Assembly (NCBI GenBank): GCA_002269645.1
Contig: NIVC01001711.1
Location: 148,028 to 212,027 of the forward strand
Reading direction: 5' to 3'
Length of the DNA stretch: 64,000 bases
DNA from: Macrostomum lignano
Lineage: Eukaryota
The notes beneath the pieces are model-generated. The model ran no database searches. It was not told the DNA's origin and worked only from the letters and a program-made list of their open reading frames with translations. Below are positions 6,810 to 37,125 of this stretch, piece by piece (the stretch's first letter is position 1; each line of letters begins with the position of its first letter). A program made the position numbers and the translations under genes.

Positions 6810-7750
6810 CAGCATGCAAGCATCCCCCCCCCCAGATAGCAAGCATCCCCCCCAGATAGCAAGCACCCCCAGATAGCAAGCATCCACCTAATAGCAAGTA
6901 TCGATCCTTATAGCAAGCATCCACCAGACAATAAGTAGCTAGTGCAACAATTTCCTTAGCTTTATAGTGGCTCCTTTATGATTGGCATGACGCTTCTTTT
7001 TACGTTTGAAATGGTGTCTCTTATGTTTGCCATGGTGGCTCATTTGTGCTTGACATGGTGGCTCTTTAATGTTTGCGATGGTGGCTCCTAAATGTTTGAC
7101 ATGGTGGCTTTTTTATGTCCTACACGGTGGCTCTTCTATGTTTGACGTGGTGGCTCTTTAATGTTTGACATGGTGGATCTTTAATGTTAGGCATGGTGGC
7201 TCTTTAATGTTAGGCATGGTGGCTCTTTAATGTTTGAAATGGTGGCTCTTTTATGTTTGACATGGTGGCTCCTAAATATTTGCCATGGTGGCTATTTTAT
7301 GATAGGCATGGAGTCACATATATGTTTCTCAATAGAATCTCTGTTCTCTACAAGCAACAAAAAGACTGCCAAATAGAGCTTTCACAAAGACAACAGAAAA
7401 ACTGCTCAAATGAAGTGCAATGCAAAAAGAAAACATCCCAAGACAGCAAGCATTGCCCCCCCCCAGGGGATAGCATGAAAAGCACCCCCCCCAGATAGCA
7501 AGCACCTCCCAGATAGCAAGCACCTCCAGATAGCCAGAACCCCCAAGATAGCAAGCATCCCCCAGATAGCAAGCACCCCCAGATAGCCAGAACCCCCAAG
7601 ATAGCAAGCATCCCCCAGATAGCAAGCACCCCCAGATAGCAAGCACCCACAGATAGCCAGAACCCCTAAGATAGCAAGCACCCCCAGATAGCAAGCATCC
7701 AATTGATAGCAAGTATCTATCCTTAAATAGCAAACATCCACCAGACAATA
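6810..7750. repeat. ~19-bp CAGATAGCAAGCATCCCCC minisatellite blocks within the Helitron unit (also 10560-10780 and 24760-24970)
   Basis: Tandem copies are directly visible at the same position in each large unit. Confidence 0.9.
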
Positions 7751-7799
7751 AGTATCTAGTGCAACAATTTCCTTAGCTTTATGGTGGCTTCTTTATGAT

Positions 7800-9830
7800 T
7801 GACATGACGCTTCTTTTTACGTTTGTAATTGTCTCTTTTATGCTTGACATGGTGGCTCTTTAATTTTCGACATGGTGGCTCTTTTATGTTCGACATGATG
7901 GCTCTTTAATGTTTGACATGGTGGCTCTTTTATGTTTTACATGGTGGGTCTTTAATGTTCAACAGAATGGCTCTTTAATGTCTGACATGGTGGCTCTTTA
8001 ATGTTTGACATGATGGCTCTTTAATGTCTGACATGGAGTCATATATATGTTAGACATGGTGGCTCTTTAATGTTGGACATGGTGGCTCTTTAATGTTAGA
8101 CATGGTGGCTCTTCAATGTTAGACATGGTGGCTCTTTAATGTTCGACATGATGGCTCTTTAATGTTAGACATGGTGGCTCTTTAATGTTCGACATGGTGG
8201 CTCTTTAATGTTCGACATGGTGGCTCTTTAATGTTCGACATGGTGGCCCTTTAATGTTTTACATGGTGGCTCTTTTATGTTCGACATGGTGGCTTTTTTA
8301 CGTTCGACATGGTGGCTCTTTAATGTTAGACATGGTGGCTCTTTAATGTTCGACATGGTGGCACTTTAATGTCTGAAATGGAGTCATGTATACACTTGAC
8401 ATGGTGACTCGTTAATGTTTGACATGTTGGCTCTTTATTGTTCGACATGGTGGCTCTTTAATGTTTGACATTGTGGCTCTTTAATGTTTGACATGGTGGC
8501 TCTTTTATGTTCAACATGGTGGTTCTTTTATGTTCGACATGGTGGCTCTTTAATATTTGACATGGTGGCTCTTTAATGTTCGACATGGTGGCTCTATAAT
8601 GTTCGACATGGTGGCTCTTTAATGTTCGACGTGGTGGCTCTTTAATGTTAGACATGGTAGCTTTTTAATGTTTGACATGGTGGCTTTTTAATGTTTGACA
8701 TGGTGCCTCTTTAATGTTTGACATGGTGGCTCTTTTATGTTCGACATGGTGGCTCTTTAATATTTGACATGGTGGCTCTTTAATGTTTGACATGGTGGCT
8801 CTTTAATGTTCGACATGGTGGCTCTATAATGTTCGACATGGTGGCTCTTTAATGTTTGACATGGTGGCTTTTTAATGTTTGACATGGTGGCTCTTTAATG
8901 TTCGATATGGTGGCTCTTTAATGTTAGACATGGTGGCTGGTAATTTTTGACATGGTGCCTCTTTAATGTTTGACATGGTGGTCCTTTTATGTTTGACATG
9001 GTGGCTCTTTAATGTTCGACATGAAGTCACATATATGTTGGACATGGTGGCTCTTTAATGTTAGACATGGTGGCTCTTTAATGTTCGACATGGTGGCTCT
9101 TTAATGTTAGACATGGTGGCTCTTTAATGTTAGACATGGTGGCTCTTTAATGTTCGACATGGTGGCTCTTTAATGTTCGACGTGGTGGCTCTTTAATGTT
9201 AGACATGGTAGCTTTTTAATGTTTGACATGGTGGCTTTTTAATGTTTGACATGGTGCCTCTTTAATGTTTGACATGGTGGCTCTTTTATGTTCGACATGG
9301 TGGCTCTTTAATATTTGACATGGTGGCTCTTTAATGTTTGACATGGTGGCTCTTTAATGTTCGACATGGTGGCTCTATAATGTTCGACATGGTGGCTCTT
9401 TAATGTTTGACATGGTGGCTTTTTAATGTTTGACATGGTGGCTCTTTAATGTTCGATATGGTGGCTCTTTAATGTTAGACATGGTGGCTGGTAATTTTTG
9501 ACATGGTGCCTCTTTAATGTTTGACATGGTGGTCCTTTTATGTTTGACATGGTGGCTCTTTAATGTTCGACATGAAGTCACATATATGTTGGACATGGTG
9601 GCTCTTTAATGTTAGACATGGTGGCTCTTTAATGTTAGACATGGTGGCTCTTTAATGTTCGACATGGTGGCTCTTTAATGTTAGACATGGTGGCTCTTTA
9701 ATGTTAGACATGGTGGCTCTTTAATGTTCGACATGGTGGCTCTTTAATGTTAGACATGGTGGCTCTTTAATGTTCGACATAATGGTTCTTTAATGTTTGA
9801 CATGGTGGCTCTTTAATGTTTGAAATTGTG
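7800..9830. repeat. 22-bp satellite GACATGGTGGCTCTTTAATGTT(C/T/A)
   Basis: About 90 tandem copies with recurring variant monomers such as GACATGAAGTCACATATATGTT. Confidence 0.97.
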
Positions 9831-9896
9831 CTTTTTTGTGTTTAGCATTTTGCGTTTTTAAGGTTTTTGAATAAAAAATCTTTTTAAAAAATCTAA

Positions 9897-9958
9897 GATT
9901 CGAACCCAGGTCGCTGCATTAGCAGTCCAGTCTGTTCGCATCTATGCTATCTCTTGTC
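9897..9958 (-). pseudogene. tRNA-Ser(GCT)-like relic / SINE-head-like sequence, copy 1
   Basis: Minus strand reads TAGCATAGATG (A-box-like)...TGGACTGCTAATGCAG (Ser-GCT anticodon arm-like)...GGGTTCGAATC (B box), then a T run. The long Ser variable arm is absent and the acceptor stem is poor. Confidence 0.6.
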
Positions 9959-10869
9959 AATTGGAGAACATGAATTGTGGCCCTTATAATTAAAGTCTTA
10001 TAGCAAATCGGTTAGAGTAAAAAGTTATGACATAATCAATTTCTCAGTCAGCCAGTATCAGTGTCAATTTAAGTTAGCAATATTGTTACGCAAGTTAAAT
10101 CAAGTTTTGTGTGCATTTCTTTGGCCCTGTTTTCAACTGGTTGTGATGTAATCCTTATCACAATTGGAATTCAGTCAGTTAGTTTTTTCTCTAGCATTCT
10201 TACAATGCATTTCAGGTCGAAAGAGCTGCTTGACCTTTGCAAAAAAGCATGTTTTTCGAATATTTAATCCCTTTAATATTGAGCGATTTCTTAGCCAAGA
10301 TGCTTGTACCGTCCCAGGAAAATTTCTGATCGAATGGTGCAAGTTTGAAGAAAATCGGTTGAGCCAATTTTTCTGAAATCAATCGCATACCCATATACAT
10401 ACAGACAACTCATTTTAATAAATAGTACTAGCAATCTTCGCCCCCGTTGGGGGACATCTGGATAGAATCTCTGTTCTCTACAAGTAACAAAAAGACAGCC
10501 AAATAAAGCCTTCACAAAGACAACAGACAAACTGCTCAAATAAAGTGTAATGCAAAAAGAAATCATCCCAAGACAGCAAGCATCCCCCAGATAGCAAGCA
10601 TCCCCCAGATTGCAAGCATCCCCCAGATAGCAAGCATCCCCCAGATAGCAAGCATCCTCCAAATAGCAAGCATCCCCCAGATAGCAAGCATCCCCAGATA
10701 GGAAGCATCTCCCCTCCCGGATAGCAAGCATCCCCCAGATAGCAAGCATCCCCAAATAGTAAGCATCCACCAGACAATAAGTAGCTAATGCAACAATTTC
10801 CTTAGCTCTATAGTGGCTCCTTTAAAATTGGCATGACGCTTAGTTTTACGTTTGAAATTGTGTATCTTT

Positions 10870-13700
10870 TATGTTTGACATGGTGGCTCTTTTATGTTCG
10901 ACATGATGGCTCTTTAATGTTTGACATGAAGTCATATATATGTTAGACATGGTGGCTCTTTAATGTTGGACATGGTGGCTCTTTAATGTTAGACATGGTG
11001 GCTCTTTAATGTTAGACATGGTGGCTCTTTAATGTTCGACATGATGGCTCTTTAATGTTAGACATGGTGGCTCTTTAATGTTAGACATGGTGGCTCTTTA
11101 ATGTTCGACATGGTGGCTCTTTAATGTTCGACATGGTGGCTCTAATGTTTTACATGGTGGCTCTTTAATGTTCGACATGGTGGCTCTTTAATGTTAGACA
11201 TGGTGGCTGTTTAATTTTTTACGATGGTGGCTCTTTAATGTTCGACATGGTGCCTCTTTAATGTTTGACATGGTGGTCCTTTTATGTTTGACGTGGTGGC
11301 TCTTTTATGTTTGACATGATGGTTCTTTAATGTTTGACATGGAGTCACATATACGTTGAACATGGTGGCTCCTTAATGTTCGACATGGTGGCTCTATAAT
11401 GTTCGACAAGGTGGCACTTTAATGTTCGACATGGTTCCTCTTTCAGGTTTGACATGGTGGTCCTTTTATGTTTTACATGGTGGCTCTTTTATGTTTGACA
11501 TGATGGCTCTTTAATGTTTGACATGGAGTCACATATATGTTGGACATGGTGGCTCTTTAATGTTCGACATGGTGGCTCTATAGTGTTCGACATGGTGGCT
11601 CTTTAATGTTCGACATGGTGGCTCTTTAATGTTAGACATGGTGGCTCTTTAATGTTCGACATGGTGGCTCTAATGTTTGACATTGTGGCTCTTTAATGTT
11701 TGACATGGTGGCTCTTTTATGTTTGACATGGTTGTACTTTTATGTTTGACATGGTGGCTCTTTTATGTTCGACATGATGGCTTTTTAATGTTTGACATGA
11801 AGTCACATATATGTTAGACATGGTGGCTCTTTAATGTTAGACATGGTGGCTCTTTAATGTTAGACATGGTGGCTCTTTAATGTTTGACATGGTGGCTCTT
11901 TAATGTTAGACATGGTGGCTCTTTAATGTTCGACATGGTGGCTCTTTATTGTTAGACATGGTGGCTCTTTAATGTTCGACATGGTGGCTCTAATGTTTGA
12001 CATTGTGGCTCTTTAATGTTTGACATGGTGGCTCTTTTATGTTTGACATGGTTGTACTTTTATGTTTGACATGGTGGCTCTTTTATGTTCGACATGATGG
12101 CTTTTTAATGTTTGACATGAAGTCACATATATGTTAGACATGGTGGCTCTTTAATGTTAGACATGGTGGCTCTTTAATGTTAGACATGGTGGCTCTTTAA
12201 TGTTTGACATGGTGGCTCTTTAATGTTAGACATGGTGGCTCTTTAATGTTCGACATGGTGGCTCTTTATTGTTAGACATGGTGGCTCTTTAATGTTCGAC
12301 ATGGTGGCTCTAATGTTTGACATTGTGGCTCTTTAATGTTTGACATCGTGGCTCTATAATGTTTGACCTGGTGGCACCTTAATGTCTGTAATGATTGCTT
12401 TTTAATGTTTGAAATGGTGGCCTTTAATATTTGACATGGTGGCTCTTTAATGCTTGACATAGTGGCTCTTTAATGTTCAACATGGTGGCTCTTTAATGTT
12501 CGACATGGTGGCTCTTTAATGTTCGACATGGTGGCTCTTTAATGTTTGACATTGTGGCTCTTTAATGTTTGACATGGTGGCTCTTTTATGTTCGACATGG
12601 TGGTGCTTTTATGTTCGACATGGTGGCTCTATAATGTTCGACATGGTGGCTCTTTAATGTTCGACATGGTTCCTCTTTAATGTTTGACATGGTGGTCCTT
12701 TTATGTTTTACATGGTGGCTCTTTTATGTTTGACATGATGGCTCTTTAATGTTTGAAATGGAGTCACATATATGTTGGACATGGTGGCTCTTTAATGTTC
12801 GACATGGTGGCTCTTTAATGTTCGACATGGTGGCTCTTTAATGTTAGACATGGTGGCTGTTTAATTTTTGACATGGTGGCTCTTTAATGTTTGACATGGT
12901 GGCTCTTTTATGTTCGACATGGTGGCTTTTTAACGTTCGACATGGTGGCTCTTTAATGTTAGACATGGTGGCTCTTTAATGTTCGACATGGTGGCACTTT
13001 AATGTCTGAAATGGAGTCATGTATACACTTGACATGGTGACTCGTTAATGTTTGACATGTTGGCTCTTTATTGTTCGACATGGTGGCTCTTTAATGTTTG
13101 ACATTGTGGCTCTTTAATGTTTGACATGGTGGCTCTTTTATGTTCGACATGGTGGTTCTTTTATGTTCGACATGGTGGTTCTTTAATATTTGACATAGTG
13201 GCTCTTTAATGTTTGACATGGTGGCTCTTTAATGTTCGACATGGTGGCTCTTTAATATTTGACATGGTGGCTCTTTAATGTTTGACATGGTGGCTCTTTA
13301 ATGTTCGACATGGTGGCTCTATAATGTTCGACATGGTGGCTCTTTAATGTTTGACATGGTGGTCCTTTTATGTTTGACATGGTGGCTCTTTAATGTTCGA
13401 CATGAAGTCACATATATGTTGGACATGGTGGCTCTTTAATGTTAGACATGGTGGCTCTTTAATGTTCGACATGGTGGCTCTTTAATGTTAGACATGGTGG
13501 CTCTTTAATGTTCGACATGGTGGCTCTTTAATGTTAGACATGGTGGCTCTTTAATGTTCGACATGGTGGCTCTTTAATGTTAGACATGGTGGCTCTTCAA
13601 TGTTCGACATGGTGGCTCTTTAATGTTAGACATGGTGGCTCTTTAATGTTCGACATAATGGTTCTTTAATGTTTGACATGGTGGCTCTTTAATGTTTGAA
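10870..13700. repeat. 22-bp satellite GACATGGTGGCTCTTTAATGTT
   Basis: More than 120 tandem copies, with internal block duplications (for example ~300-bp blocks at about 11690 and 11990). Confidence 0.97.
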
Positions 13701-13770
13701 ATTGTGCTTTTTTGTGTTTAGCATTTTGCGTTTTTAAGGTTTTTGAATAAAAAATCTTTTTAAAAAATCT

Positions 13771-13832: not shown

Positions 13833-13873
13833 TCAATTGGAGAACATGAATTGTGGCCCTTATAATTAAAGTC

Positions 13874-14223
13874 ACTACTAAGGACTGGCAGATCCGGGCG
13901 TTTTGCGAAGGTCCGTCGGGCTGATGTCGGCCTCTAGCACCGCGGCAAGATGCTCCCTCGGGGTGTACACCCGGGGTGTACCTCCAGCGGGGTGGGCGTC
14001 CAGCGAGTGTACCTCCAGCGGGGTGGGCGTCCAGCGAGTGTACCTCCAGCGGGGTGGGCCTCCCTCGGGGTGTACATCCGGCGGGGGGATTCCCACTCGT
14101 GTGCACGCGGTTAGTGTTGGGGGAACCCCGATGCTGACGCAGCCCTGTACAGTGAGCATGCAGCCCTGTAGCTGGGGACAGAGAGCAGCCCCTGTAGCAG
14201 GAGGGGTAGTGCGTGGAGAGCCG
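13874..14223 (+). repeat. Left terminal inverted repeat (350 bp) with internal 31-bp tandem repeats
   Basis: Reverse complement of 23791-24177 apart from repeat copy number and a 6-nt indel; unit GTGTACCTCCAGCGGGGTGGGCGTCCAGCGA at 13976, 14007 and 14038. Confidence 0.95.
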
Positions 14224-14445
14224 TACAGAGGATAGAGAGCCCCGCCCCAGTTGCAGGGGACAGAGAGGCAGTGGGTGCGGAGGGACAGAGAGCAGCCCAG
14301 GCAGGAGGCGCGGGACAGAGAGGCGGTGAATCACACCCCCAGGAGAGAGCCGTACAGTGAGCTTCCCCAGGCCCGGGGGAGAGGGACGGACGGGCAACGT
14401 GTAATTTCAAACCCATAAATAGAAGCAGTGTACAAAACCCTCTGT

Positions 14446-15225
14446 ATGGAGAACATGGAGGCGGGTATAACTGATAACCCCTATTTCAGCAACGAGAGCG
14501 TGTGCGCCAGAATACCCCTCATTGAAAGATTGTTATCAGACACTAGGAAAAGAATCGCGGGATTGTCCACAAAGGAGCGCTTAGAATTCACGTATCTAGC
14601 CAGGCTGGCATTCGTAACAGAAGTAAACATTGAGGAGAGAGAGGTGGCGTTGACTTGGGAGGAAGCAGAAGAAGCGATAAAAACCCGGTCCTGTATGGTC
14701 ACAGCCAATCTATGGAGTGCGGCAATACACCTCAATGACACGAGGGGGTTAATTGACACAGAGTTTGTTAGGCAAGTTCACACACGCGTGTGCAGAGGAC
14801 TGCTCCCGAATGCGGGATCGTATAGAATTAAGCACGCCAAGCCAGCAGGCGCGAGTATGTATTACAGCGCCCCAGAAAATATCGAACGGCAGCTGGTAAA
14901 ATTAACTAGAGACATAAAAGAGCCACAAATCTTGCGTAATGCAGTAGTGACAGGAGCATATTTCCTAGAAAAGTTTCTCACCATACACCCCTTTAGCGAC
15001 GGCAATGGTAGAACTGCTAGGTTGTTATTATCAAAGTTGCTCAACCGGATTCTGCCAGAACCCGTATCATTTGCGTATGCAAATAGAGACACATATCTCA
15101 ACTGTCTTTACGAAGCGCGCAGCAGCAACCGGGGGCTCCTAGCGGCGTATTTACTTTTATCAATTGAGAGAACCGTTCTACAGTGGAGGGAATGGTTGGA
15201 AATCTGTTCAGACGGCAGCCTATAA
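14446..15225 (+). CDS. Fic/Doc-domain protein (putative AMP transferase)
   Basis: Canonical catalytic motif HPFSDGNGRTAR. N-terminal FVTEVNIEE..VALTWEE aligns by eye with the inhibitory-helix region of class II Fic proteins. Intact ORF. Confidence 0.9.
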   Translation: MENMEAGITDNPYFSNESVCARIPLIERLLSDTRKRIAGLSTKERLEFTYLARLAFVTEVNIEEREVALTWEEAEEAIKTRSCMVTANLWSAAIHLNDTRGLIDTEFVRQVHTRVCRGLLPNAGSYRIKHAKPAGASMYYSAPENIERQLVKLTRDIKEPQILRNAVVTGAYFLEKFLTIHPFSDGNGRTARLLLSKLLNRILPEPVSFAYANRDTYLNCLYEARSSNRGLLAAYLLLSIERTVLQWREWLEICSDGSL

Positions 15226-15228
15226 ATA
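15221..15228 (+). promoter_or_regulatory. TATAAATA box (also at 17312, 18344, 19532, 20697, 21062; CATAAATA at 14414; TATATAAG plus GC box at 16152-16171)
   Basis: The exact 8-mer recurs about 25-60 bp upstream of element ATGs (further for the integrase) and often overlaps the upstream stop codon and an AATAAA. Confidence 0.7.
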
Positions 15229-15260
15229 AATAAAATTTGGTATTTCTCAACAATATCGAA

Positions 15261-15614
15261 ATGTACTGGCAATCGGAAATAGTGTACACCCACGTTGACA
15301 ACGCAGTGCTGGAAGTGGGATATTGGGACCCAAACAAGCCGCGTTTCCGCATCCACTGTCAAAACTGTAGCTGTCCAGGAGCCGTGTTTAGTCGAGCACA
15401 ATGGCATCGAATGAAATTTCTGGGCACTAGCTGCACAGATTACGATCTCGGAGGCGGCGCATCTATCAAAGTTATCGACGGGAAGCGCCTGTACGTAAAA
15501 GGAGACTGCGAATTTCACCTGTCAGACAAAATACTTTGTGCAGTTGAAAAGAATAGAGTCGACAATTTCTTCCACTATTTCTTTCTCGACGAATCTGACG
15601 AGTCAGAGGAATGA
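15261..15614 (+). CDS. Hypothetical protein with acidic tail
   Basis: ATG 40 bp after a TATAAATA box; its stop overlaps the next start (ATGA at 15611-15614). Confidence 0.7.
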   Translation: MYWQSEIVYTHVDNAVLEVGYWDPNKPRFRIHCQNCSCPGAVFSRAQWHRMKFLGTSCTDYDLGGGASIKVIDGKRLYVKGDCEFHLSDKILCAVEKNRVDNFFHYFFLDESDESEE

Positions 15615-16126
15615 GCTGGATTTCTCGAGACTACCCGCTTTTATCGAGCAAAGAAAGGGCAGAGTACGAGACCCTGAAAAAGTCCACAGACTGGTTATGC
15701 ATTTGTCACGGCAAACCAATTCCCGAACGATTAGTCACCTTTAATGTCGAGGTAGACGAAATTGGGCAAGGGCCTTACAACACCCAAGAATATACAGATG
15801 CCCGAATTGACTACTACTTTAGAGACAAGATGCATTTCAAAGCAAATCTTCAAAGAATGGAGCAGATAATTGCCCCAATATTACAAGAGGATCATCGTGA
15901 GAAAATACGGTACCGGAATCACCAGCCGATTGCTCCCTCGTGGACGGAACACCAAAGGATTTGGCGACCTAAACACAGTAGACCAGTGCTAGCGAAGTTG
16001 ACTATCAACCTTCACTGCAGCTGCATTAACGACACGCCTCAAACCCCTCGACCAGAAGATCGAAACAAAAGGTTTATTTTTTCCGGATTTCCAACACCGG
16101 AAAGTGTCGTTAAAGAAGCACTATAA
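15611..16126 (+). CDS. Hypothetical protein (171 aa)
   Basis: Intact ORF with an ATGA overlap with the upstream gene, typical of compact viral genomes; no family recognised. Confidence 0.7.
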   Translation: MSWISRDYPLLSSKERAEYETLKKSTDWLCICHGKPIPERLVTFNVEVDEIGQGPYNTQEYTDARIDYYFRDKMHFKANLQRMEQIIAPILQEDHREKIRYRNHQPIAPSWTEHQRIWRPKHSRPVLAKLTINLHCSCINDTPQTPRPEDRNKRFIFSGFPTPESVVKEAL

Positions 16127-16218
16127 CAAAAACGCCCAGCCACCCCACCCTCCGCCCCAAGGGTATATAAGGAGGCGCTCAGGGTGTGAGACCCACTCTC
16201 AGCAACAGCAGCAGCAAC

Positions 16219-16899
16219 ATGGATACCGTTCAAGACTACAATAGTGTTAGGATCGACCTATTCTCTCTCAAGTCGAGAGGTCCAAGCTACAACGGAACCG
16301 AGACGTACGACATTGAGTACGACGAACAGGGCCCTCTCTATCTTGCCAATGCGACGCCCGTACTGATTGTCAAGGGTGTGAGAACCGACAATGAAGGCCG
16401 CGAATTCATCATTCTTTCCCAAAAGCACTTGGAGAGCTGCATACCAGAAGCGTTTAATTCCGTGTGTCACCAGCTCTCTATCCAAGGAATGGCGCTATTG
16501 GGGTACAACCCCACTTTTGGCTGCGACAGCGCTGCATTCGGATTGGCTCACGACTTTAAAATGTACGACAAGAGCGGCAAGTTGTGCACCGACTACAAGA
16601 ACAAGACGGGCTACTATAGATTACTGTTCGCCCTAGACACGGCGGTGATTCACGACTCGGTTCTAACCGCGGTACCAAAAATTCAACAACTGCAATTCAT
16701 AGAAGCTCCCAAGCAGGCGTTTGACCGCTGCTACTGGATTCCACCGTTAAAAATCAAGGTAGGACGCAAGCGCGGAGCTGGTGGAGCTGAGCGGAAACAA
16801 AAGCAACCGAAAAAACCGCTTGCAGAACGTCGTGTGCGTAAACAGGGTGTTTTGCGCAAGGTGGAACAGCCTACCGAACTTGGACTGGGCGCGCGCTAG
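16219..16899 (+). CDS. Possible OB-fold single-stranded DNA-binding protein with basic (NLS-like) tail
   Basis: Has its own GC box and TATATAA upstream. The pattern YDIEYDEQGPLYL...YRLLFALDTAVI...PKIQQLQFIEAPKQAFDRC resembles viral gp2.5-like SSBs by eye; K/R-rich C-terminus. Confidence 0.45.
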   Translation: MDTVQDYNSVRIDLFSLKSRGPSYNGTETYDIEYDEQGPLYLANATPVLIVKGVRTDNEGREFIILSQKHLESCIPEAFNSVCHQLSIQGMALLGYNPTFGCDSAAFGLAHDFKMYDKSGKLCTDYKNKTGYYRLLFALDTAVIHDSVLTAVPKIQQLQFIEAPKQAFDRCYWIPPLKIKVGRKRGAGGAERKQKQPKKPLAERRVRKQGVLRKVEQPTELGLGAR

Positions 16900-17299
16900 A
16901 ACGTTTCATAGACCCCGGGCATTGTACAACCTGAGGATCGGAAAGTGTACAATAAACTTTTTCAAACGTTCATTATCTGCCATTGTTTTTGGTTGCCAAT
17001 CAACCAACGATGTGCTGCGTCTTTTTGCTCAATGTAAACCAAACTCTGTTGTTATCACTACCGGTACCTATCGTGCAGAAGTTATTGTTAAGCCAAACTT
17101 TTTCCGCCTTGCCAACTCGAGCTCGCGCTGGGTTGAGTGGGAGAGTGAGGTATTCAATGGGCTTGTAATAAAGTCCCCATTCCGCAAGGCCAAGTGTCTG
17201 CTGTGCGGAAAGAATGGTCGGTTAGTGTTCCTAGGAATACGAAACTATGACGAACTGTGTAAAATGTACGACCACGTGACTGCTATTCTGCAACTCTAA
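16781..17299 (+). CDS. Divergent TATA-box-binding-protein (TBP)-like protein; no in-frame ATG
   Basis: WESEVFNGLVIKSPFRKAKCLLCGKNGRLVFLGIRNYDELCKMYDHVTAIL aligns without gaps in its core to TBP repeat 2 ([50 protein letters not shown]). The upstream LRIGKCTINFFKRSLSAIVFGCQS resembles repeat 1. It overlaps the tail of the SSB-like ORF in the +1 frame. Confidence 0.7.
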   Translation: MELSGNKSNRKNRLQNVVCVNRVFCARWNSLPNLDWARARTFHRPRALYNLRIGKCTINFFKRSLSAIVFGCQSTNDVLRLFAQCKPNSVVITTGTYRAEVIVKPNFFRLANSSSRWVEWESEVFNGLVIKSPFRKAKCLLCGKNGRLVFLGIRNYDELCKMYDHVTAILQL

Positions 17300-17337
17300 T
17301 TATGCTTTGCTTATAAATAAACAAAATATGCACATGT

Positions 17338-17727
17338 ATGCACGCAATGCTTACCACCTTAATAATGACAAACGGAATTTCTCGTCTTTGTTCTTGCCGT
17401 CGCGAGCTAGAGGAGCTCGGTGACGCGCGACCACATCGAAGGAGGGCCATTATTAGGGGAGCCGATAATGAGTTGATGCAGTGTCTGTGCGAGTTAAGTC
17501 ACAATGTACTCAAGGGCAATATCGATCTATCCCCTAGACAGTTTGCAAGGTTGAAACGTTATAGAGAAGCCCTGCATGACATGGCCGACAAAAAACTGTC
17601 TATAAATAGGAAGAAGAATATGATACTATCGGACCCTCAAGTTGGAGGATTCCTACCAATTCTCGCCAAGATTGCTGCACCGTTAATCACTGGACTGTTT
17701 GGTGGTCTGCTAGGACAACGACGTTGA
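17338..17727 (+). CDS. Conserved Maverick small basic/core protein with a pX-like hydrophobic C-terminus
   Basis: LMQCLCELSHNVLKGNIDLS...LKRYREALHDMA...QVGGFLPILAKIAAPLITGLFGG pattern is typical of Maverick genes near the integrase. Confidence 0.75.
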   Translation: MHAMLTTLIMTNGISRLCSCRRELEELGDARPHRRRAIIRGADNELMQCLCELSHNVLKGNIDLSPRQFARLKRYREALHDMADKKLSINRKKNMILSDPQVGGFLPILAKIAAPLITGLFGGLLGQRR

Positions 17728-17729
17728 AA

Positions 17730-18311
17730 ATGGACAAGTACGTTGTGGTCCCCGAGGAGGAATTCAATCAGCTTAGACAGGGTACTCCGCGAGAAATTGC
17801 CCCAAAATCGGAGTACGAAAAACTTGTAGAGTACAATGCAAAGCTACAGACCCAATTGGCTAAAGTAAAACCCCAACAGACGACAAAGCAGCTATTTTCT
17901 GATAGGCAACAACGTATATGGAATATACTAACAGAAAAGCACCCCAGCCTAAATTACAACCAATCGTGGGAAGTCGTTTTTGATGGTGAAACTTGGGGTG
18001 GTAGCAACGTTTTTGATCTTCTACAAGCCGTCACCACCAACACTAATAATCACCCGAAATATTCGACCGCTTTCTGGGCTCTACTAGACAAGGCCCGTAT
18101 ACCAATGTCTATGCTCGGTCGGAAACAGCTCCCTGTGGAGGAAAAGAAGGTTGACCATATGGTTGGTACCGATGATTACCGCGATGAATATGAGCACACA
18201 ATTGCGACAGACACCCGCGATTTAACGACCACGCGCAACAAAGGTGTAAATGCTATGCCCAACTTGTGGATCAAGGTGCCGGGATGGGTAAATATCACGA
18301 TTACCAACTAA
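17730..18311 (+). CDS. Conserved Maverick hypothetical protein
   Basis: MDKYVVVP start and LNYNQSWEVVFDGETWGGSNVFDLL motif; intact ORF abutting the upstream gene. Confidence 0.65.
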   Translation: MDKYVVVPEEEFNQLRQGTPREIAPKSEYEKLVEYNAKLQTQLAKVKPQQTTKQLFSDRQQRIWNILTEKHPSLNYNQSWEVVFDGETWGGSNVFDLLQAVTTNTNNHPKYSTAFWALLDKARIPMSMLGRKQLPVEEKKVDHMVGTDDYRDEYEHTIATDTRDLTTTRNKGVNAMPNLWIKVPGWVNITITN

Positions 18312-18482
18312 GACCGCCCCGGAACCGAAAATACGATACTCTTTATAAATAGAACCCTAATCCATACATAACCGCGCCCGGCGGTCATGGGCGCAGCAGC
18401 CGCGCGTCAAAGCTTTGTGTAGACAACTCCCCAGCCGACATTACGTGCAACTATTCATGCTGTGCATCCACACTTGTTGTCA

Positions 18483-19562
18483 ATGAGGGCTCTAACCGCT
18501 CTTCGTCGAGTTTACGAACAAGGAGCCGCCGCTTTTTCAAATGCTGCCCGTGTCTATCAGGAGGCCAAACGTCTGGCGCCAAACCTGACAAGACGCCAAA
18601 CCAGGGAATGGCTAGAAACCCAACCGAGTTACACCCGTCACCGGAGAGTCAACAGGACATTTAAAACGGGAAAAGTAATGTCGGGAGGATTCATGGAAAC
18701 TCTACAAGCCGATTTGATGGACATGTCGCGATACAAACGTTGGAATGACGGACATAAATATATACTAGTTATTATTGATGTGCTTAGTAAGCAGGCTTTT
18801 TGTAGGGCAATTAAACTAAAGAGTGATACCCCCGCAGCGTTTGAGTCAATGTTGGCGAATGATTTCCCTGCCCGCCCCCTTTACCTTCACGTGGATCGGG
18901 GTACCGAGTTTTATAATCAGCGAATGCGCCGCATACTAAAAGACAATAATGTTAAAATGTACAGCACCAACTCTGTGTACAAGGCAAACATGGCCGAGAG
19001 GCTGATTAGAACTCTTCGAAAGCGTCTGGCTCGCTACTTTGAGCACAACAACACGTGGCGTTGGGTTGACTACTTACCTAATTTGGTAGGCAATTACAAC
19101 AACACGACGCATTCTACTATTGAGATGAAACCGTCAAGTGTAGGGTTCCACAATCAGAAGCGTGTGTGGGAAAAGCTCTACCCGGATCAGCAAAAAGACG
19201 ACCCCGTATATAAAAAGGGGGATTTTGTGAGAATTTCGAAATCTCGCAGGGCATTCGACAAGGAGGCGTACGACATGTATAGTGAGGAGGTGTACATTAT
19301 ATCCAAAGTTTGTCCTGGACCCCCACATTTTTATCGTATTTCTGATTTGTCTGGTGAAGTGATTGAGGGACGGTTTTACTACAATGAACTGTCCAAATCT
19401 ACCCGACCCGAGCGTTTTGTAATCAATAAAGTTTTGCGTAGAAACGTGTTAATAAATGGTGTTGCGCACCATTACGTTAGCTGGCGCGGTTATCCCGACA
19501 CTTTTAATTCATTTGTACCTGTAAATGAAGTTATAAATATACGTCAACGTAATAATAACTAA
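18483..19562 (+). CDS. Retroviral-like (rve) DDE integrase with C-terminal chromodomain
   Basis: LQADLMD (D), LHVDRGTEFYN (D), KANMAERLIRTL (E); GDFVRISK...EEVYII...YRISDLSGEVIEGRFY region; chromodomain-like HYVSWRGYPDTFNSFV. Intact. Confidence 0.95.
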   Translation: MRALTALRRVYEQGAAAFSNAARVYQEAKRLAPNLTRRQTREWLETQPSYTRHRRVNRTFKTGKVMSGGFMETLQADLMDMSRYKRWNDGHKYILVIIDVLSKQAFCRAIKLKSDTPAAFESMLANDFPARPLYLHVDRGTEFYNQRMRRILKDNNVKMYSTNSVYKANMAERLIRTLRKRLARYFEHNNTWRWVDYLPNLVGNYNNTTHSTIEMKPSSVGFHNQKRVWEKLYPDQQKDDPVYKKGDFVRISKSRRAFDKEAYDMYSEEVYIISKVCPGPPHFYRISDLSGEVIEGRFYYNELSKSTRPERFVINKVLRRNVLINGVAHHYVSWRGYPDTFNSFVPVNEVINIRQRNNN

Positions 19563-19565
19563 TGC

Positions 19566-20701
19566 ATGGCTACCATGCATCTCTTTCTGCCTAGCAATGC
19601 GTGCCCCGAGCACTATCCCGAAAATAATCCGGCTCATTATTTTATTAATTTACCGGATACTCTCCACTTTCCGAATCATGAGGTTTGCCTCGAACGGATC
19701 TACTTTACCAAAGAATTTGAATCTTTCAAAAAATCTATACCGATCACCATTCGCGAACAGGAGGGCCTCTTGACGGCTTCGTCGTTTGCAAAGATTTGTC
19801 TCGCAGCGGGTCTGAAAACCCCTGAAGAATGTATTTCCGGCTTTCTAAACGGTATCCGATACGTTGAAGGGGATAATAAGAAAATTGTCTTTTTAAGAAC
19901 ATCCCCAACCGCCTTTATGATTGTGAATACTTCAAAATCCACCGTCGGCATCAAATTCCCGGATACCTACCCAAGGTGTTTAAACTAGTCGCCGGCTTCG
20001 AGTCTAATGAGGATCTACCTACTGAACTCGTATTACACGCGGGGTGTGCAGCCTCCATCACCGCAGTTGTTGAGGAACCGACTGTACAGTCAATGGACCA
20101 TGCTCCAATAATAAGACAAGTTACTAGCGCAGCGTCTGATCAAATCTTTTTTATGCGGGGAGGATACTATAGTACACCTAAAAGATTGGTGGAGGAACTC
20201 AACGATATAATTTGGAAACATATCAAAGATCTCATAGCGGCTCCAGCACCTAGAACGGACTTTTTCAGATACAGCGAAGTTACGAATAGGTGTTATTACA
20301 TTGGCTCGACGGATTACATGTTTGGCTGGGGCGCTTGACCAGCGTGCTTGGTTTCCCAGAGCATGATTATACAACCCCATTTTTCGGTATATCGGAATTC
20401 TACGCAAACGCATCAATGGAATTAACCGGTGGAATACAAACAATGTACATCTATTCGAGCATAGTCGATTCTGTTATTGTAGGAGACGTTAAAGTTCCTC
20501 TGTTGGGAGCTATACCGATGGATCCCAAAGTTCAGGGCGGTCGCGAGTACTACGAGTTTGTCAATCCGGCATATCTACCACTGGTTAAGCACCCATTCAA
20601 AACTATTGAAGTACAAATTAACGATGATATGGGCAGGGATATGACAAAAGTAATGAGGGAAGACCGTCTTGAGCGTTAACATCCGCGAAAAGAAGCTATA
20701 A
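19566..20701 (+). pseudogene. Minor capsid (penton, single jelly-roll) gene with three frameshifts
   Basis: N-terminal HLFLPSNACPEHYPENNPAHYFINLP and C-terminal MYIYSSIVDSVIVGDVKVPLLGAI...YYEFVNPAYLPL...IEVQINDD. Frame breaks near 19970, 20330 (GGGG run) and about 20650, after which GKTVLSVNIREKKL* ends at 20701. Confidence 0.85.
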
Positions 20702-20744
20702 ATAAACAACACAGCCTCAGTAAACTATATCCTAGTGCTTAATC

Positions 20745-21089
20745 ATGCCTTCTATTCTGATTGGTGGAGCTTTGCCTGTTTTCGCAGGCGCCCAGAGGGG
20801 CAACGGTTTGTTTGGAAGCATTGCCCGCTTCGCGCTGCCAATTCTAAAGAGTTTTGGTAAAAACATTCTCCGTCATGGTACTAGAGCCCTAGCAACTACG
20901 GTTAACGATAGCCTCGAGCAAGGAGGCAATTTGAAAGAGTCTGTCCTGCGCAATTCTGTTCAGGCTTCCAAGGACGCCTTTAAAGACACGGTTACCCAAA
21001 GGGATAGCGGACGAAGAAGAAAAAAGGCTCCGAAGCGTCTCAATTCAGACATTTTCAGCACTATAAATAAAAAGCCCCGCTTCAATTAG
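20745..21089 (+). CDS. Core protein (pVII-like) with QRGNG motif
   Basis: FAGAQRGNGLFGSIARFALPILKSFGK amphipathic segment and basic tail RRRKKAPKR; it lies just upstream of the MCP, as in Mavericks. Confidence 0.75.
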   Translation: MPSILIGGALPVFAGAQRGNGLFGSIARFALPILKSFGKNILRHGTRALATTVNDSLEQGGNLKESVLRNSVQASKDAFKDTVTQRDSGRRRKKAPKRLNSDIFSTINKKPRFN

Positions 21090-21118
21090 ATTCGCCGAAT
21101 CGAGTCTGTCTACTAAAC

Positions 21119-22401
21119 ATGTCCGAGTGTCTGTGTACAAAGTCCGAGTTTGAGCTCTTTGCCCCTCGAGCCCACCAGATTGCCGCTGTAGGTTCAACTA
21201 CTGAAGAAATCCACCCGGTTGCCAGCGTCGAAAATGCGAGTGTGGTCGAGTTTAGAATTGTGGGCGGCGAGACGTTTGTCGATCTTAATGACATTGATCT
21301 CGAGATTAAAGGTTGTATTAAGAGAGCTAATGGAGCCGATTTGGCGGCGGATTCAAACGTGGCGCCAATCAATTACCTCTTGGAGACCATGTTCAAAAAC
21401 GTGTCTCTTTCCATAAATGGTACACATATCGAGTCTAGCAACAACAACCACGCCTACAAGGCGTACATTCGTACATGCTTGAGTTATGGGTCTGATTCAA
21501 AGTCTAACCAACTGCGGATGATGGGCTACGCTAAAGACGCTGGGGGTCAAATGGCTGCGGTTGGAAATCCTGGCTTTGTAACTCGCAAGGCGATGGCTGC
21601 CGGTTCTCGAACATTTCATCTGTATGGCCCTCTTAGTCTCGACTTTTTTGTCACCAACGATCGTATGCTGCTACCCTACACTGATATGGTGGTTACGCTC
21701 ACTCTGCAAAATTCTGGATTCGTTGTGGAGAATCACGCCGAAGGGGTTGATGCAAAGTTGGTTCTTCAAAGTGCAAAATTACACGTTCGTCGGGTAAAGG
21801 CTAACCCCCAACTGGCCTTGGAGATTGAAGAACAGCTGTCAACTCAGAATGCAGTCTACCCCATCGAGCGCCTCGTTGTACACAACACCTCTGTCGCTGT
21901 AGGAGTTCGCGACGTGTCAATCAATAATATTTTCCCGGAGCAGAAGCCCAAACTTGTCATTATGGGGATGGTAAATAGTGCCGCATATAACGGGGTGGCC
22001 ACCCATAATCCGTTCAATTTCGAGCCATTTGGGGCGGACAGTGTGGCCCTGTACAAGGACGGGTCAGCCTGTGCGGTCAACCATTCACTCCAAGGTTCGC
22101 TGCCCAAAACTATGCTCGCGAATACGCCATGCTGTTTAAGAGCCTAGGGAAAATGAATCGTGATTTGGACATTGACCTGTCATATTCGGATTATCGCGCT
22201 GGTTACTGTTTATTTGCGTGGAATCTAATGCCCGACATGGAACTGGGTGGACATAGCATGCCTCGCGAGAGAGGGAATCTTACCCTACAGATAAAGTTTT
22301 CTGCAGCCCTACCTGCCGGGATTAACGCTTTGGTGTTTGGTTACTTTGACAACGCGGTGCAAATCACTAGAGGCCGCCAGCCCATTCTGGACTACGTATG
22401 A
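21119..22401 (+). pseudogene. Major capsid protein (double jelly-roll, Maverick PY type) with one frameshift
   Basis: CLCTKSEFELF...IHPVAS..VVEFRI..FVDLNDI start, AYKAYIRTCLSY and HNPFNFEPF. A 1-nt loss at about 22074 shifts into GQPFTPRFAAQNYAREYAMLFKSLG...YRAGYCLFAWNLMPD...GNLTLQIKFSAALP. Confidence 0.9.
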
Positions 22402-22835
22402 ACACGTTGGAAATTTTGGAACGTTTAAAACTACCTGTGGAAGTGCGCGTTTGCCCTCTTGACAGAATTCCTGCACCTGTTTACCCTGCTGCATATGTAA
22501 TTAATTTTGACACGGGTAATCTGCCGGGCACCCACTGGGGACTGATTTGCCTACACGATGATAAGAGTGTGACATTTTTTGACCCCCTGTGTATTGAACC
22601 CGTGCCGGAATTGCTCTCGGCTTGGATCTCGAAGCATGTACATTCACCTGTTGCTATGAATCGCCACCCTGTTCAACACCCTCTAAGTGTAGCGTGTGGG
22701 CCGCATGTGATTTTTGTGGCCGAAAAGCACTTTTTAGAGGGGTTGTCGATTGAAAAGATTTTAAGGGAATGTTACTCTACCAATCTGCTTGAAAATTATT
22801 TGATGGTTCGAAAACATGTTCTACGAATAAAATAG
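22398..22835 (+). CDS. Adenain-like cysteine maturation protease
   Basis: GTHWGLI (His), TFFDPL (Asp), QHPLSVACGPHVI (Gln/Cys); ATGA overlap with the MCP stop. Confidence 0.9.
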   Translation: MNTLEILERLKLPVEVRVCPLDRIPAPVYPAAYVINFDTGNLPGTHWGLICLHDDKSVTFFDPLCIEPVPELLSAWISKHVHSPVAMNRHPVQHPLSVACGPHVIFVAEKHFLEGLSIEKILRECYSTNLLENYLMVRKHVLRIK

Positions 22836-22869
22836 TTTTTAATATTTGGAGTGTCAACTCGCCCTGAAA

Positions 22870-23499
22870 ATGTACCAAACAATTGATCCTGACGCTCTAC
22901 AGTTTGCTCCAAATACTTCGGCGATTTTTGCTGGTGTTAACCAGAGCGGAAAAACAACTCTTGTTAAAGAATTGCTGCGAAACGAGTTTTTTCAGGACCC
23001 TAAGCCTGTTCGCATTGATTGGTTTGGGCACTATCCAGACCCGGAACTGTTTGAATTACCGTACCCTGTCAATTTTCGCTCGTCTACATTTAACCCTGAA
23101 ACCTATGTTCCCGCTCCGAATATTCTACTCGTTGTCGATGATCAAATGCACGCCATGGAAAAAAACGCTGCTTTTACCGCATTTTTCACTCGCAAAGTCA
23201 GCCATGTGGGATTCCGGCTTTGGTACCTTGTACAAAACCTGTTTGCCAAGGGCAAGGAGCACCGCACTCAATCCCTTAACGCAAACTACCTTGTATTGTT
23301 CCGCAATGTACGGGACGTTAGTACAGTCGCCCATATTGCAAAGCAGCTTGTCCCCGCTAACCCAAAAAGTTTTGTTCAAATGTACGAAGACGCCACTAGG
23401 GAGCCCTACTCCTACCTGATTGTTAATTGCTTGCAGAACGCATCTGTTCGCTACTATGCTAATGTGTTGGGGCGCTACCCCGTAGTTTATGCTAAATAA
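22870..23499 (+). CDS. A32/FtsK-like packaging ATPase
   Basis: Walker A GVNQSGKTT, Walker B LLVVDD, and WYLVQNLF...RTQSLNANYLVLFRNVRD...EDATREPYSYLIV. Intact; AATAAA at the stop. Confidence 0.95.
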   Translation: MYQTIDPDALQFAPNTSAIFAGVNQSGKTTLVKELLRNEFFQDPKPVRIDWFGHYPDPELFELPYPVNFRSSTFNPETYVPAPNILLVVDDQMHAMEKNAAFTAFFTRKVSHVGFRLWYLVQNLFAKGKEHRTQSLNANYLVLFRNVRDVSTVAHIAKQLVPANPKSFVQMYEDATREPYSYLIVNCLQNASVRYYANVLGRYPVVYAK

Positions 23500-23790
23500 A
23501 ACACTGTTGGAGAGCTTTGCTCTGTTTGCCGGATGGCCTGAACCTGAAACAACTGAATTACGTGTTTTTTCTTTTCAATTCCTCTGCAGCCTGGGGGCTC
23601 TCTATCACTCACCGCCGGTCTGTCCCTCTACCACCCCGGCCTGGGGAAGCTCTCTGTCCCTCCGTGTGACTCAGGCGGCGCAGGGTGCCTCCACGCACTC
23701 TCTGTCCCAGCACCCCGTGTCTCTCTGTACCCCGCCTCATACTGCTACAGGGGGCCGCCTGTTATCTGTCCCCTGCTACAGGGGGGATGG

Positions 23791-24177
23791 CGGCTCTCCA
23801 CGCACTACCCCTCCTGCTACAGGGGCTGCTCTCTGTCCCCAGCTACAGGGCTGCATGCTCACTGTACAGGGCTGCGTCAGCATCGGGGTTCCCCCAACAC
23901 TAACCGCGTGCACACGAGTGGGAATCCCCCCGCCGGATGTACACCCCGAGGGAGGCCCACCCCGCTGGAGGTACACTCGCTGGACGCCCACCCTGCCGGA
24001 TGTACACTCGCGGGAGGCCCACCCCGCTGGAGGTACACTCGCTGGACGCCCACCCCGCTGGAGGTACACCCCGGGGGAGGTGGTACACCCCGAGGGAGCA
24101 TCTTGCCGCGGTGCTAGAGGCCGACATCAGCCCGACGGACCTTCGCAAAACGCCCGGATCTGCCAGTCCTTAGTAGT
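23791..24177 (-). repeat. Right terminal inverted repeat (387 bp)
   Basis: Inverse of 13874-14223 with one extra 31-bp unit and a 6-nt insertion. Confidence 0.95.
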
Positions 24178-25059
24178 AAATAAAGTCTTATAGCAAATCG
24201 GTTAGAGTAAAAAGTTATGACATAATCAATTTCTCAGTCAGCCAGTATCAGTGTCAATTTAAGTTAGCAATATTGTTACGCAAGTTAAATCAAGTTTTGT
24301 GTGCATTTCTTTGGCACTGTTTTCAACTGGTTGTGATGTAATCCTTATCACAATTGGAATTCAGTCAGTTAGTTTTTTCTCTAGCATTCTTACAATGCAT
24401 TTCAGGTCGAAAGAGCTGCTTGACCTTTGCAAAAAAGCATGTTTTTCGAATATTTAATCCCTTTAATATTGAGCGATTTCTTAGCCAAGATGCTTGTACC
24501 GTCCCAGGAAAATTTCTGATCGAATGGTGCAAGTTTGAAGAAAATCGGTTGAGCCAATTTTTCTGAAATCAATCGCATACCCATATACATACAGACAACT
24601 CATTTTAATAAATAGTACTAGCAATCTTCGCCCCCCGTTGGGGGACATCTGGATAGAATCTCTGTTCTCTACAAGTAACAAAAAGACAGCCAAATAAAGC
24701 CTTCACAAAGACAACAGACAAACTGCTCAAATAAAGTGTAATGCAAAAAGAAATCATCCCAAGACAGCAAGCATCCCCCAGATAGCAAGCATCCCCCAGA
24801 TTGCAAGCATCCCCCAGATAGCAAGCATCCCCCAGATAGCAAGCATCCTCCAAATAGCAAGCATCCCCAGATAGCAAGCATCCCCCAGATAGGAAGCATC
24901 TCCCCTCCCGGATAGCAAGCATCCCCCAGATAGCAAGCATCCCCAAATAGTAAGCATCCACCAGACAATAAGTAGCTAATGCAACAATTTCCTTAGCTCT
25001 ATAGTGGCTCCTTTAAAATTGGCATGACGCTTAGTTTTACGTTTGAAATTGTGTATCTT

Positions 25060-26500
25060 TTATGTTTGACATGGTGGCTCTTTTATGTTCGACATGATGG
25101 CTCTTTAATGTTTGACATGAAGTCATATATATGTTAGACATGGTGGCTCTTTAATGTTGGACATGGTGGCTCTTTAATGTTAGACATGGTGGCTCTTTAA
25201 TGTTAGACATGGTGGCTCTTTAATGTTCGACATGATGGCTCTTTAATGTTAGACATGGTGGCTCTTTAATGTTAGACATGGTGGCTCTTTAATGTTCGAC
25301 ATGGTGGCTCTTTAATGTTCGACATGGTGGCTCTAATGTTTTACATGGTGGCTCTTTAATGTTCGACATGGTGGCTCTTTAATGTTAGACATGGTGGCTG
25401 TTTAATTTTTTACGATGGTGGCTCTTTAATGTTCGACATGGTGCCTCTTTAATGTTTGACATGGTGGTCCTTTTATGTTTGACGTGGTGGCTCTTTTATG
25501 TTTGACATGATGGTTCTTTAATGTTTGACATGGAGTCACATATACGTTGAACATGGTGGCTCCTTAATGTTCGACATGGTGGCTCTATAATGTTCGACAA
25601 GGTGGCACTTTAATGTTCGACATGGTTCCTCTTTCAGGTTTGACATGGTGGTCCTTTTATGTTTTACATGGTGGCTCTTTTATGTTTGACATGATGGCTC
25701 TTTAATGTTTGACATGGAGTCACATATATGTTGGACATGGTGGCTCTTTAATGTTCGACATGGTGGCTCTATAGTGTTCGACATGGTGGCTCTTTAATGT
25801 TCGACATGGTGGCTCTTTAATGTTAGACATGGTGGCTCTTTAATGTTCGACATGGTGGCTCTAATGTTTGACATTGTGGCTCTTTAATGTTTGACATGGT
25901 GGCTCTTTTATGTTTGACATGGTTGTACTTTTATGTTTGACATGGTGGCTCTTTTATGTTCGACATGATGGCTTTTTAATGTTTGACATGAAGTCACATA
26001 TATGTTAGACATGGTGGCTCTTTAATGTTAGACATGGTGGCTCTTTAATGTTAGACATGGTGGCTCTTTAATGTTAGACATGGTGGCTCTTTAATGTTCG
26101 ACATGGTGGCTCTTTAATGTTCGACATGGTGGCTCTTTAATGTTCGACATGGTGGCTCTTTATTGTTAGACATGGTGGCTCTTTAATGTTCGACATGGTG
26201 GCTCTAATGTTTGACATTGTGGCTCTTTAATGTTTGACATGGTGGCTCTTTTATGTTTGACATGGTGCTCCTTTTATGTTAGACATGGTGGCTCTTTAAT
26301 GTTCGACATGGTGGCACTTTAATGTTAGACATGGTGGCTCTTTAATGTTCGACATGGTGGCTCTTTAATGTTCGACATGGTGGCTCTTTAATGTTAGACA
26401 TGGTGGCTCTTTAATGTTAGTTATGGTGGCTCTTTAATGTTCGACATGGTGGCTCTTTAATGTTTGACATGGTGGCTCTTTAATGTTTGACATTGTGCTT
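25060..26500. repeat. 22-bp satellite GACATGGTGGCTCTTTAATGTT
   Basis: Tandem copies; 24181 to about 26050 is nearly identical to 9991 to about 11860. Confidence 0.97.
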
Positions 26501-36245: not shown

Positions 36246-36267
36246 ATAATTTTTTTCAATAAAATAA

Positions 36268-37125
36268 ATGGAAGCCATAGCCGAAAGACTGAACAACATT
36301 GTTTCACACTCTAAGGAGAGCATTCCAATCACTATAGCGGGTCGCATTACTGAGTCAAACGGAATCTTCATTCAAAAATTGGAGCAACCACTTCGTTTGG
36401 ATCCCGAGGCGAATTACCACGTCTATCTCAACGATTTCACTGGGTGGTCAAATGTTCCCAATGTGACAGCGGAAAATAACAAGTTTTATTAAAAATGGAA
36501 GCGTACTACAACAGAGGTTGTGATATTTCCTGTCAGCACACAGAGCGTGGATACTTATAATTACTTCTTGGAGAACGTCTTCACTAAACGAAAGCATTTT
36601 GAGATACCGGATGAAAGCAAACCAGAAAATAAACTGTTCCCTGTTAGATTAACTTATGATCTAACTGTCATGAGAGTTGTCTTGCAAGTTCATAAGGACG
36701 CAGAGGTAGAGTTTAAAGATGGCACTTGGTATCGCGAGTTGGGATTTGAAAAGAGAGTTTATGGTGGCGCCACAGACCAAAGCCCACCGCAGGCGCCTGG
36801 CACTGTTGCTGTGTCCCGGCTAATATCCGGTATGTACTTGGCGCCAAATATCGCTGACATTGTCAAAGGTTTGAATATATTAATTCGCAGCAATCTGAGC
36901 CATGATTGGATATTCAAGGGCAAACGAACCAACATACTTTTTAACATTTCAAACTCTGTTGCTAGTGGCAAAATGCTTGTGCAAAAGCCAAACCCCGTGA
37001 AAAGAGTGATTCTGAGTAATAGAGAGATACATGAAATCGTTCTGCAGTTTGAAACAGAGGATGGAGTTGGTGTCGATTTTAACGGGGAAGAGTTTGTGCT
37101 AACAATTATTTTTGAGAGAATGTGA
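36268..37125 (+). pseudogene. Minor capsid (penton-like) gene of viral element 2 with one nonsense codon
   Basis: FIQKLEQPLRLD...YLNDFTGWSNVPNVTAENNKFY*KWK continues in frame to LIRSNLS...LFNISNSVASG...IHEIVLQFETEDGVGVDFNGEEFVLTIIFERM; TAA at 36490-36492. Confidence 0.75.

Follow-up and report, generated by a model that had tools for sequence, protein, structure and literature searches.

The question raised by this locus is why a flatworm genome holds an intact Fic-domain gene beside a terminal inverted repeat (TIR), what carries that gene, where it came from, and whether its product is still restrained. The window analyzed here is the whole stretch of 64,000 nt of Macrostomum lignano DNA (contig NIVC01001711.1, positions 148,028 to 212,027, forward strand; GCA_002269645.1). 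Our analysis best fits the view that the gene, likely an old capture from the host, codes for an intact Fic protein whose regulatory Glu is conserved, and that it is optional cargo on the integrase and capsid half of a likely two-part Maverick. We hold this combined reading with moderate confidence.

We found that the Fic gene lies in a 10.3-kb element (13874-24177) that begins ACTACT and terminates AGTAGT. The features, in window coordinates, are:

13868..13873, no strand: left copy of the target site duplication, AAAGTC; the right copy is at 24182-24187 after 4 extra bases, with joints as in the empty site
13874..14223, + strand: left TIR, starting ACTACT, with 31-bp subrepeats inside; its first ~27 nt are the variable tip
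14446..15225, + strand: Fic gene, 259 aa, intronless, the first gene after the left TIR
14569..14643, + strand: N-terminal regulatory helix of Fic (residues 42-66), with the conserved Glu64 at 14635-14637
14986..15021, + strand: catalytic motif of Fic, HPFSDGNGRTAR (residues 181-192)
15261..15614, + strand: ORF2, 117 aa, no family
15611..16899, + strand: ORF3 (171 aa) and ORF4 (226 aa), no family, common to the sister family
17338..18311, + strand: ORF5 (129 aa) and ORF6 (193 aa), no family, common to the sister family
18483..19562, + strand: rve integrase, 359 aa (PF00665, E 1.7e-9)
19566..20679, + strand: likely minor capsid gene, so named from position and size; three ORFs in the window copy
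20745..21089, + strand: 114-aa ORF, likely a core protein
21119..22401, + strand: likely major capsid gene, a putative assignment; a frameshift splits the window copy
22398..22835, + strand: cysteine-protease-like ORF, 145 aa (PF02902, weak, E 0.066)
22870..23499, + strand: P-loop ATPase, 209 aa, likely the packaging ATPase (weak AAA matches)
23791..24177, - strand: right TIR, ending AGTAGT

The element has the TIRs, 6-bp duplication and rve integrase of an autonomous Polinton/Maverick; it lacks the pPolB that such an element carries. Neither a pPolB nor a helicase was matched on it (ORFs, Pfam), and no pPolB lies between the TIRs of its full-length copies, whose alignments to the window element span it completely at 94-99%. 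Target duplications of 6 bp flank 14 of the 15 copies for which both flanks were read; 8/23 copies lack one end. Both capsid-like genes occur whole elsewhere, the minor one (376-379 aa) in 11/23 and the major one (427 aa) in 12/23 other copies. The capsid-like protein had no PDB match and no IMG/VR relative, and one of ten homologues gave a weak match to a double jelly-roll (DJR) family (PF21738, E 0.005). The capsid labels, taken from position, size and this one weak DJR match, are putative.

The element inserted into a small dispersed repeat, which is itself flanked by a 23-bp satellite array (6900-13706 and 25035-26497). Elsewhere in the window are a second, unrelated Polinton-type remnant (34950-37125), in which a likely minor capsid ORF comes after that of a DJR protein (PF21738, E 2e-8), and an intact mariner transposase ORF of 353 aa (50024-51085).

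An initial annotation of this DNA had reported an intact ORF with a full Fic motif adjoining the left TIR, and no obvious signal anchor or TPR region. Both points were upheld. The ORF list contains the frame, the motif is at residues 181-192, and Pfam assigns the ORF to Fic (PF02661, E 3.9e-14, 53.7 bits, cut-off 24). No second Pfam family, TPR included, was found in the 259-aa protein at E 0.1. The HPFx[DE]GNGRxxR motif and the Fic fold are both present: the AlphaFold2 model (pLDDT 95.9) aligns to FICD with Z 26.3 and an rmsd of 2.6 over 238 residues. Because this alignment is confined to FICD residues 187-441, the element's Fic has no anchor or TPR region. It thus has none of the marks of a FICD orthologue (anchor, TPR, and a place in the FICD clade). 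The top database match is a Macrostomum lignano protein, 96% identical, and the GC3 of the gene (0.51) is similar to that of neighboring genes. Contigs of four runs cover the element evenly, intergenic parts too, at a depth close to host intron cover, a pattern compatible with expression or with none. Database records hold no sequence containing this Fic as RNA.

We found that the putative regulatory glutamate is conserved. We aligned 128 relatives picked from homology matches, with short fragments mostly left out. Position 64 is Glu in 120 of them, position 56 is F or Y in 118, position 59 is E or D in 106, and position 63 is mostly G or S. Only 8 of the 120 relatives bearing Glu64 have the canonical (S/T)xxxE(G/N); the element's Fic, which reads VNIEER, does not, and the subfamily has [YF]xx[ED][VIC]xxxE instead. 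The segment EVNIEE is identical in 16/16 intact genomic copies. Since Glu64 is kept across relatives, EVNIEE is a subfamily motif and not a private decay. The initial annotation had recognized this segment, which is indeed present at residues 59-64, but its register (E59 for S/T, E63 for the Glu) is probably off by one, E64 being the conserved residue. If E64 is taken as the inhibitory Glu, F56 falls at -8 and N61 at -3, matching the canonical row FTYNTNAIE with one inserted residue required. Profile alignments with HMMER and hhalign instead put E64, with a gap, three residues before the canonical Glu. E66 is likewise invariant in the four nearest proteins. The Glu capping the active site may be E64.

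The predicted structure bears on the same point. The AlphaFold2 model has a helix at residues 42-63, N-terminal to the Fic core. Class I and III Fic structures align to the model only from about residue 65-83, and the range aligned to class II structures takes in the helix. Because the helix falls within the aligned range for class II structures alone, its position is that of class II. The helix had been called degenerate, a description that does not survive: E64 is found in 120/128 relatives, and the model places the helix as in class II Fic proteins and FICD. The inhibitory Glu of FICD restrains AMPylation and is required for deAMPylation, according to the available part of PMC8097203. Retention of a regulatory Glu would be unexpected in a constitutive toxin.

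We found that the nearest relative of the element's Fic is a host gene. FicA, a two-exon Macrostomum lignano paralogue, is 44-47% identical and matches the element's Fic over its full length, residues 17-76 in one exon (E 2.5e-8) and 84-256 in the other (53%). Its intron (phase 0, GT-AG, 5.6 kb) is absent from the element's Fic. NCBI models P0061, P0207 and P0208 join the exons. The FicA acceptor site is the start of contigs in 2/4 runs, with 262 unaligned letters, and depth there climbs from 7 or less to 33-86 in 3/4 runs. FicA (E 7e-42) and P0062 (1e-39) score well ahead of the next relative (2e-23). In the main tree (27 rows, LG+G4, with a partial FICD row), the element's Fic, FicA, P0062 and P0128 form one clade with support of 100/99, and a quick tree of 65 rows gave the same grouping. 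Union of the element's Fic with FICD was rejected by the AU test (lnL 93.8 lower, p-AU 5.9e-82). The phylogeny called for by the initial annotation therefore puts the protein in a clade of its own kin and not inside host FICD, which is a separate intron-bearing gene with a TPR-like region and SNAIEGN. Within the clade, the other three group together to the exclusion of the element's Fic (support 94/87). The capture is therefore old, and may have run in either direction. These comparisons make it likely that the element acquired an intron-free copy of a host Fic gene other than FICD in the distant past.

Relatives are found in other genomes. In viral and prokaryote scans, 6 of 159 Fic ORFs scored higher on the subfamily profile among the matches listed, five of them on contigs of large eukaryotic DNA viruses. 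The four-sequence clade gained no further member from a metagenome scan of 190 candidates. The same non-canonical Fic type is present in contigs of large eukaryotic DNA viruses (L113:7878-8657, L137:7401-8348, L101:7590-8513 and L109:7725-8444), next to genes for a TK-TMK fusion, a D5 primase, or Lon, FtsJ and ankyrin. The host has two further non-FICD paralogues, FicB, adjoining FicA, and FicC, with HPYKNGNGR (L071:4111-5097, L063:4815-5540). Four separate eukaryotic Fic groups are noted in the accessible portion of PMC4454073, and these may include the element's subfamily.

We found that the gene is maintained by selection. There are 16 full-length, stop-free Fic copies in the genome (window included), 96-100% identical, besides broken and older ones. 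Intact copies (16, in 10 haplotypes) differ by 16 synonymous and 16 non-synonymous variants (pN/pS 0.29, p 7e-4), with no variation in the catalytic motif or helix. Over 23 copies, pN/pS is 0.37 for Fic (p 1.3e-5), 0.12 for ORF2, 0.30 for ORF3 and 0.06-0.22 for core genes, a weaker constraint on Fic than on the core. Selection relaxed to neutrality and absence from other copies, which had been named as grounds for doubting the cargo reading, are thus not what we see. Older broken Fic relics, two of them with ORF2 as well, have 70-82% DNA identity and pN/pS of 0.36-0.48 (L074-L076). Fic and ORF2 are present together and absent together, and a sister family, its genes otherwise in the same order, lacks both in 6/6 copies read. 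Given the selection on Fic and ORF2 and their absence from the sister family, the two are a maintained, optional module. The sister family's common backbone also supports the view that Fic is cargo of a virus-like element, as first proposed. Fic is thus a genuine cargo gene under selection, its origin host-type and its regulatory helix altered in motif yet retained.

We found a candidate source of the polymerase that the Fic-bearing element lacks. One tip of the Fic family led to a second element of 8.7-9.1 kb with a pPolB gene (E 3e-17) and an ORF weakly resembling PC4. Integrase, capsid-like, protease and ATPase queries had no match in 18/18 such pPolB-only loci. Duplications of 6 bp flank 11/11 of those with both ends. 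The Fic element and the pPolB-only element have no DNA in common beyond ~32 nt (2 pPolB copies compared). Within that short stretch, 8 of the 14 tip types of the Fic family (nt 1-20) are also found among the 17 types on pPolB elements, and these shared types cover 22/33 Fic-family ends and 0/31 sister ends; the polymerase-type ends include L084 and L094/L062, loci without a demonstrated whole gene set.

Breaks split the pPolB frames of the copies read. They fall at the same places in both pPolB families, once within a DxxSLYP-type motif (L098:3875-7901, L318:2031-6159), and such fixed breaks are likely introns. Six of 18 polymerase-half loci have an extra 336-aa orphan ORF (L262:7992-8999, L094:3199-4209), with no Pfam family over cut-off and no PDB match. 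One copy of the polymerase half interrupts an unrelated Maverick in its capsid-like gene region (L098/L099, G000:C4072). Across 16 distinct tip variants, nucleotides 7-27 show a mean difference of 43%, whereas element bodies are 97-99% identical (L002-L070, L260-L279). The variants look modular, some being base complements (CCG/GGC), and the left and right tips of a copy sometimes differ (13874-13900, 24151-24177).

The sister family has a matching partner as well. Its ATPase and capsid-like proteins are 85-87% and 85-86% identical to those of the Fic family, and its ATPase differs from the Fic family's at pS 0.70. As predicted before looking, sister-type tips occur on a second pPolB family, which has 56-75% identity to the first: its 6 tips are separated from sister tips by 0-6 changes and from Fic-family tips by 11-14. 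Correspondingly, 16 Fic-family tips differ from the first polymerase family by 0-6 changes but from the other pair by 10-15. Elements of 7.5-8.6 kb with sister-type TIRs were considered as the polymerase partner and rejected, having no matching gene inside. The two families yielded at least 55 and at least 37 pPolB matches, none within 48 kb of the at least 27 and at least 27 ATPase matches; these genome counts are lower bounds in a fragmented assembly with duplicated haplotypes.

Because the Fic element has no DNA polymerase and its tips are common to a polymerase-only element, both are likely halves of one Maverick. The two parts have matching termini and complementary genes. The initial annotation had noted neither the missing polymerase nor the partner element. 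The carrier of Fic is thus probably one half of a bipartite Maverick, an arrangement seen twice in this genome. We also consider it reasonably likely that the segments are stably bipartite and mutually dependent, one with capsid and integrase and the other with the polymerase, matched by a fast-diversifying, swapped tip of ~27 nt, and that of two tip-matched, diverged pairs one has added a host-derived Fic of an undescribed subfamily.

Other accounts of the Fic gene were weighed against these results. The initial annotation had read it as a de-inhibited Fic of bacterial origin, and among ESM Atlas clusters of 50 or more members its neighbors are bacterial Fic clusters (0.96). However, the 100/99 branch divides it from host FICD and 10 canonical rows, only 1 of 80 prokaryote loci scored above on the subfamily profile, marginally, among the matches listed, GC3 resembles that of the neighbors, the Glu is conserved, and the nearest kin are the spliced host FicA with P0062 and P0128. 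Bacterial acquisition is very improbable and largely refuted. Transfer might instead have been reversed, with the subfamily traveling in eukaryotic DNA viruses and FicA a domesticated copy that gained its intron later. The subfamily members on contigs of such viruses (L101, L109, L113, L135/L137) and the branching of the element's Fic outside FicA, P0062 and P0128 fit this direction. We think it rather unlikely, given three such host paralogues (FicA, FicB, FicC), the splicing of FicA and its presence in likely RNA contigs of 3/4 runs, and the distance of the viral members. A different proposal concerns function: Fic would be a selfish toxin enforcing inheritance, with ORF2 or a polymerase-half gene as antidote, for which the nematode Maverick cargo msft-1 and yeast killer/helper plasmids are said to be models. 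Fic and ORF2 do come and go together, ORF2 is strongly conserved (pN/pS 0.12), their slot equals that of the wasp and krma cargo, and some polymerase-half copies have the extra orphan ORF. But Fic, in contrast to class I toxins, has its own N-terminal regulatory helix with a conserved Glu; the sister pair spreads in its absence, and it is broken in several genomic copies, so we regard a toxin as improbable.

The two-part arrangement also has a competing explanation, in which each element type arose separately by deletion and parasitizes a complete Maverick, missing from the assembly or arriving by infection, the two types not being mutual partners. Non-coding elements with the same tips, 7.5-8.6 kb or more, do exist (L084:1984-10000, L310-L313), so such tips do attract parasites; L084 itself combines TIR parts of the Fic family with others of the polymerase family. 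The genome also has complete-looking Mavericks, with pPolB close to an ATPase, and our searches yield lower bounds. Against this, the two types have no DNA in common beyond ~32 nt (2 pPolB copies) and therefore did not both arise by deletion from a single recent parent. Purifying selection acts on every capsid-half gene, the same split recurs in the second pair despite its pS of 0.70 in the ATPase, and the other Mavericks are only 30-46% identical when compared by ATPase. We consider parasitism of a complete element unlikely but a serious possibility, and prefer two mutually dependent halves.

If the halves are partners, the polymerase half would copy both elements by protein priming at the common tips of ~27 nt: since pPolB primes at termini, common tips would let one polymerase copy both. 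The integrase of the capsid half would insert both elements, leaving 6-bp duplications. These priming and integration steps draw on Polinton biology as given in the available parts of PMC11161782 and PMC4061559. Ends may be swapped while both elements replicate together; several exact tip variants are common to young, otherwise unrelated families, which requires ongoing end exchange. Fic, without ER anchor or TPRs, would act as an AMP-transferase under its own restraint, adding AMP or removing it. Its target would be a cytosolic or nuclear host protein, probably that of host FicA, and its action would favor the element during its active phase.

To our knowledge, the life cycle of Polintons in animals is still not demonstrated. 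Two complementary halves in a laboratory flatworm, if true, would be direct evidence of Polinton action in trans, and the shared tips would narrow the likely replication origin down to ~27 nt. Paired halves would also be a model for the origin of segmented DNA viruses such as bidnaviruses; usual annotation would file such halves as "incomplete". The common picture is one Fic per animal. Here, in contrast, is an animal with non-FICD Fic enzymes whose different regulatory motif is common to eukaryotic DNA viruses.

Our literature search (supplements, Repbase and subscription papers lay outside it) found no paper pairing a Fic domain with a Polinton and no relevant paper on Macrostomum or flatworm Polintons/Mavericks. 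By title or abstract start it found no split, segmented or helper-dependent Maverick, and the word "Fic" is absent from the adintovirus paper. The closest known systems are compared here as described in the available parts of the cited reports. Like FICD/HYPE and class II Fic proteins (PMC8097203), the element's Fic has the full catalytic motif, an N-terminal helix before the core and the same fold (Z 26.3); unlike FICD/HYPE, it has no transmembrane or TPR part, has another helix motif, and belongs to a separate clade. Nematode Mavericks place host-derived cargo in the slot matching Fic and ORF2, but the wasp and krma cargo keeps introns and the elements encode pPolB (bioRxiv 10.1101/2022.07.12.499685), whereas here the cargo is intronless and there is no pPolB. 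Polintons/Mavericks likewise have TIRs, 6-bp duplications, an rve integrase, an ATPase, and protease-like and capsid-like genes; by definition they have pPolB and integrase on one element (PMC5499653, PMC8502044, PMC11161782), whereas here these are on two and the set is complete only if summed. Tlr1 and Polinton-like viruses have capsid genes and, in Tlr1, an rve integrase without pPolB, as here, but carry their own helicase (PMC5499653); none was detected here, and a protease-like gene is present. Bidnaviruses have two segments with matching termini and a Polinton-derived pPolB, as here, but are ssDNA viruses with a parvovirus-type capsid and no integrase (PMC4061559, PMC8502044), whereas both parts here are integrated dsDNA elements. 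In yeast killer/helper linear plasmids a cargo-bearing element relies on a helper, as here; those plasmids are cytoplasmic and form no particles (PMC13348850), whereas the dependence here would be mutual.
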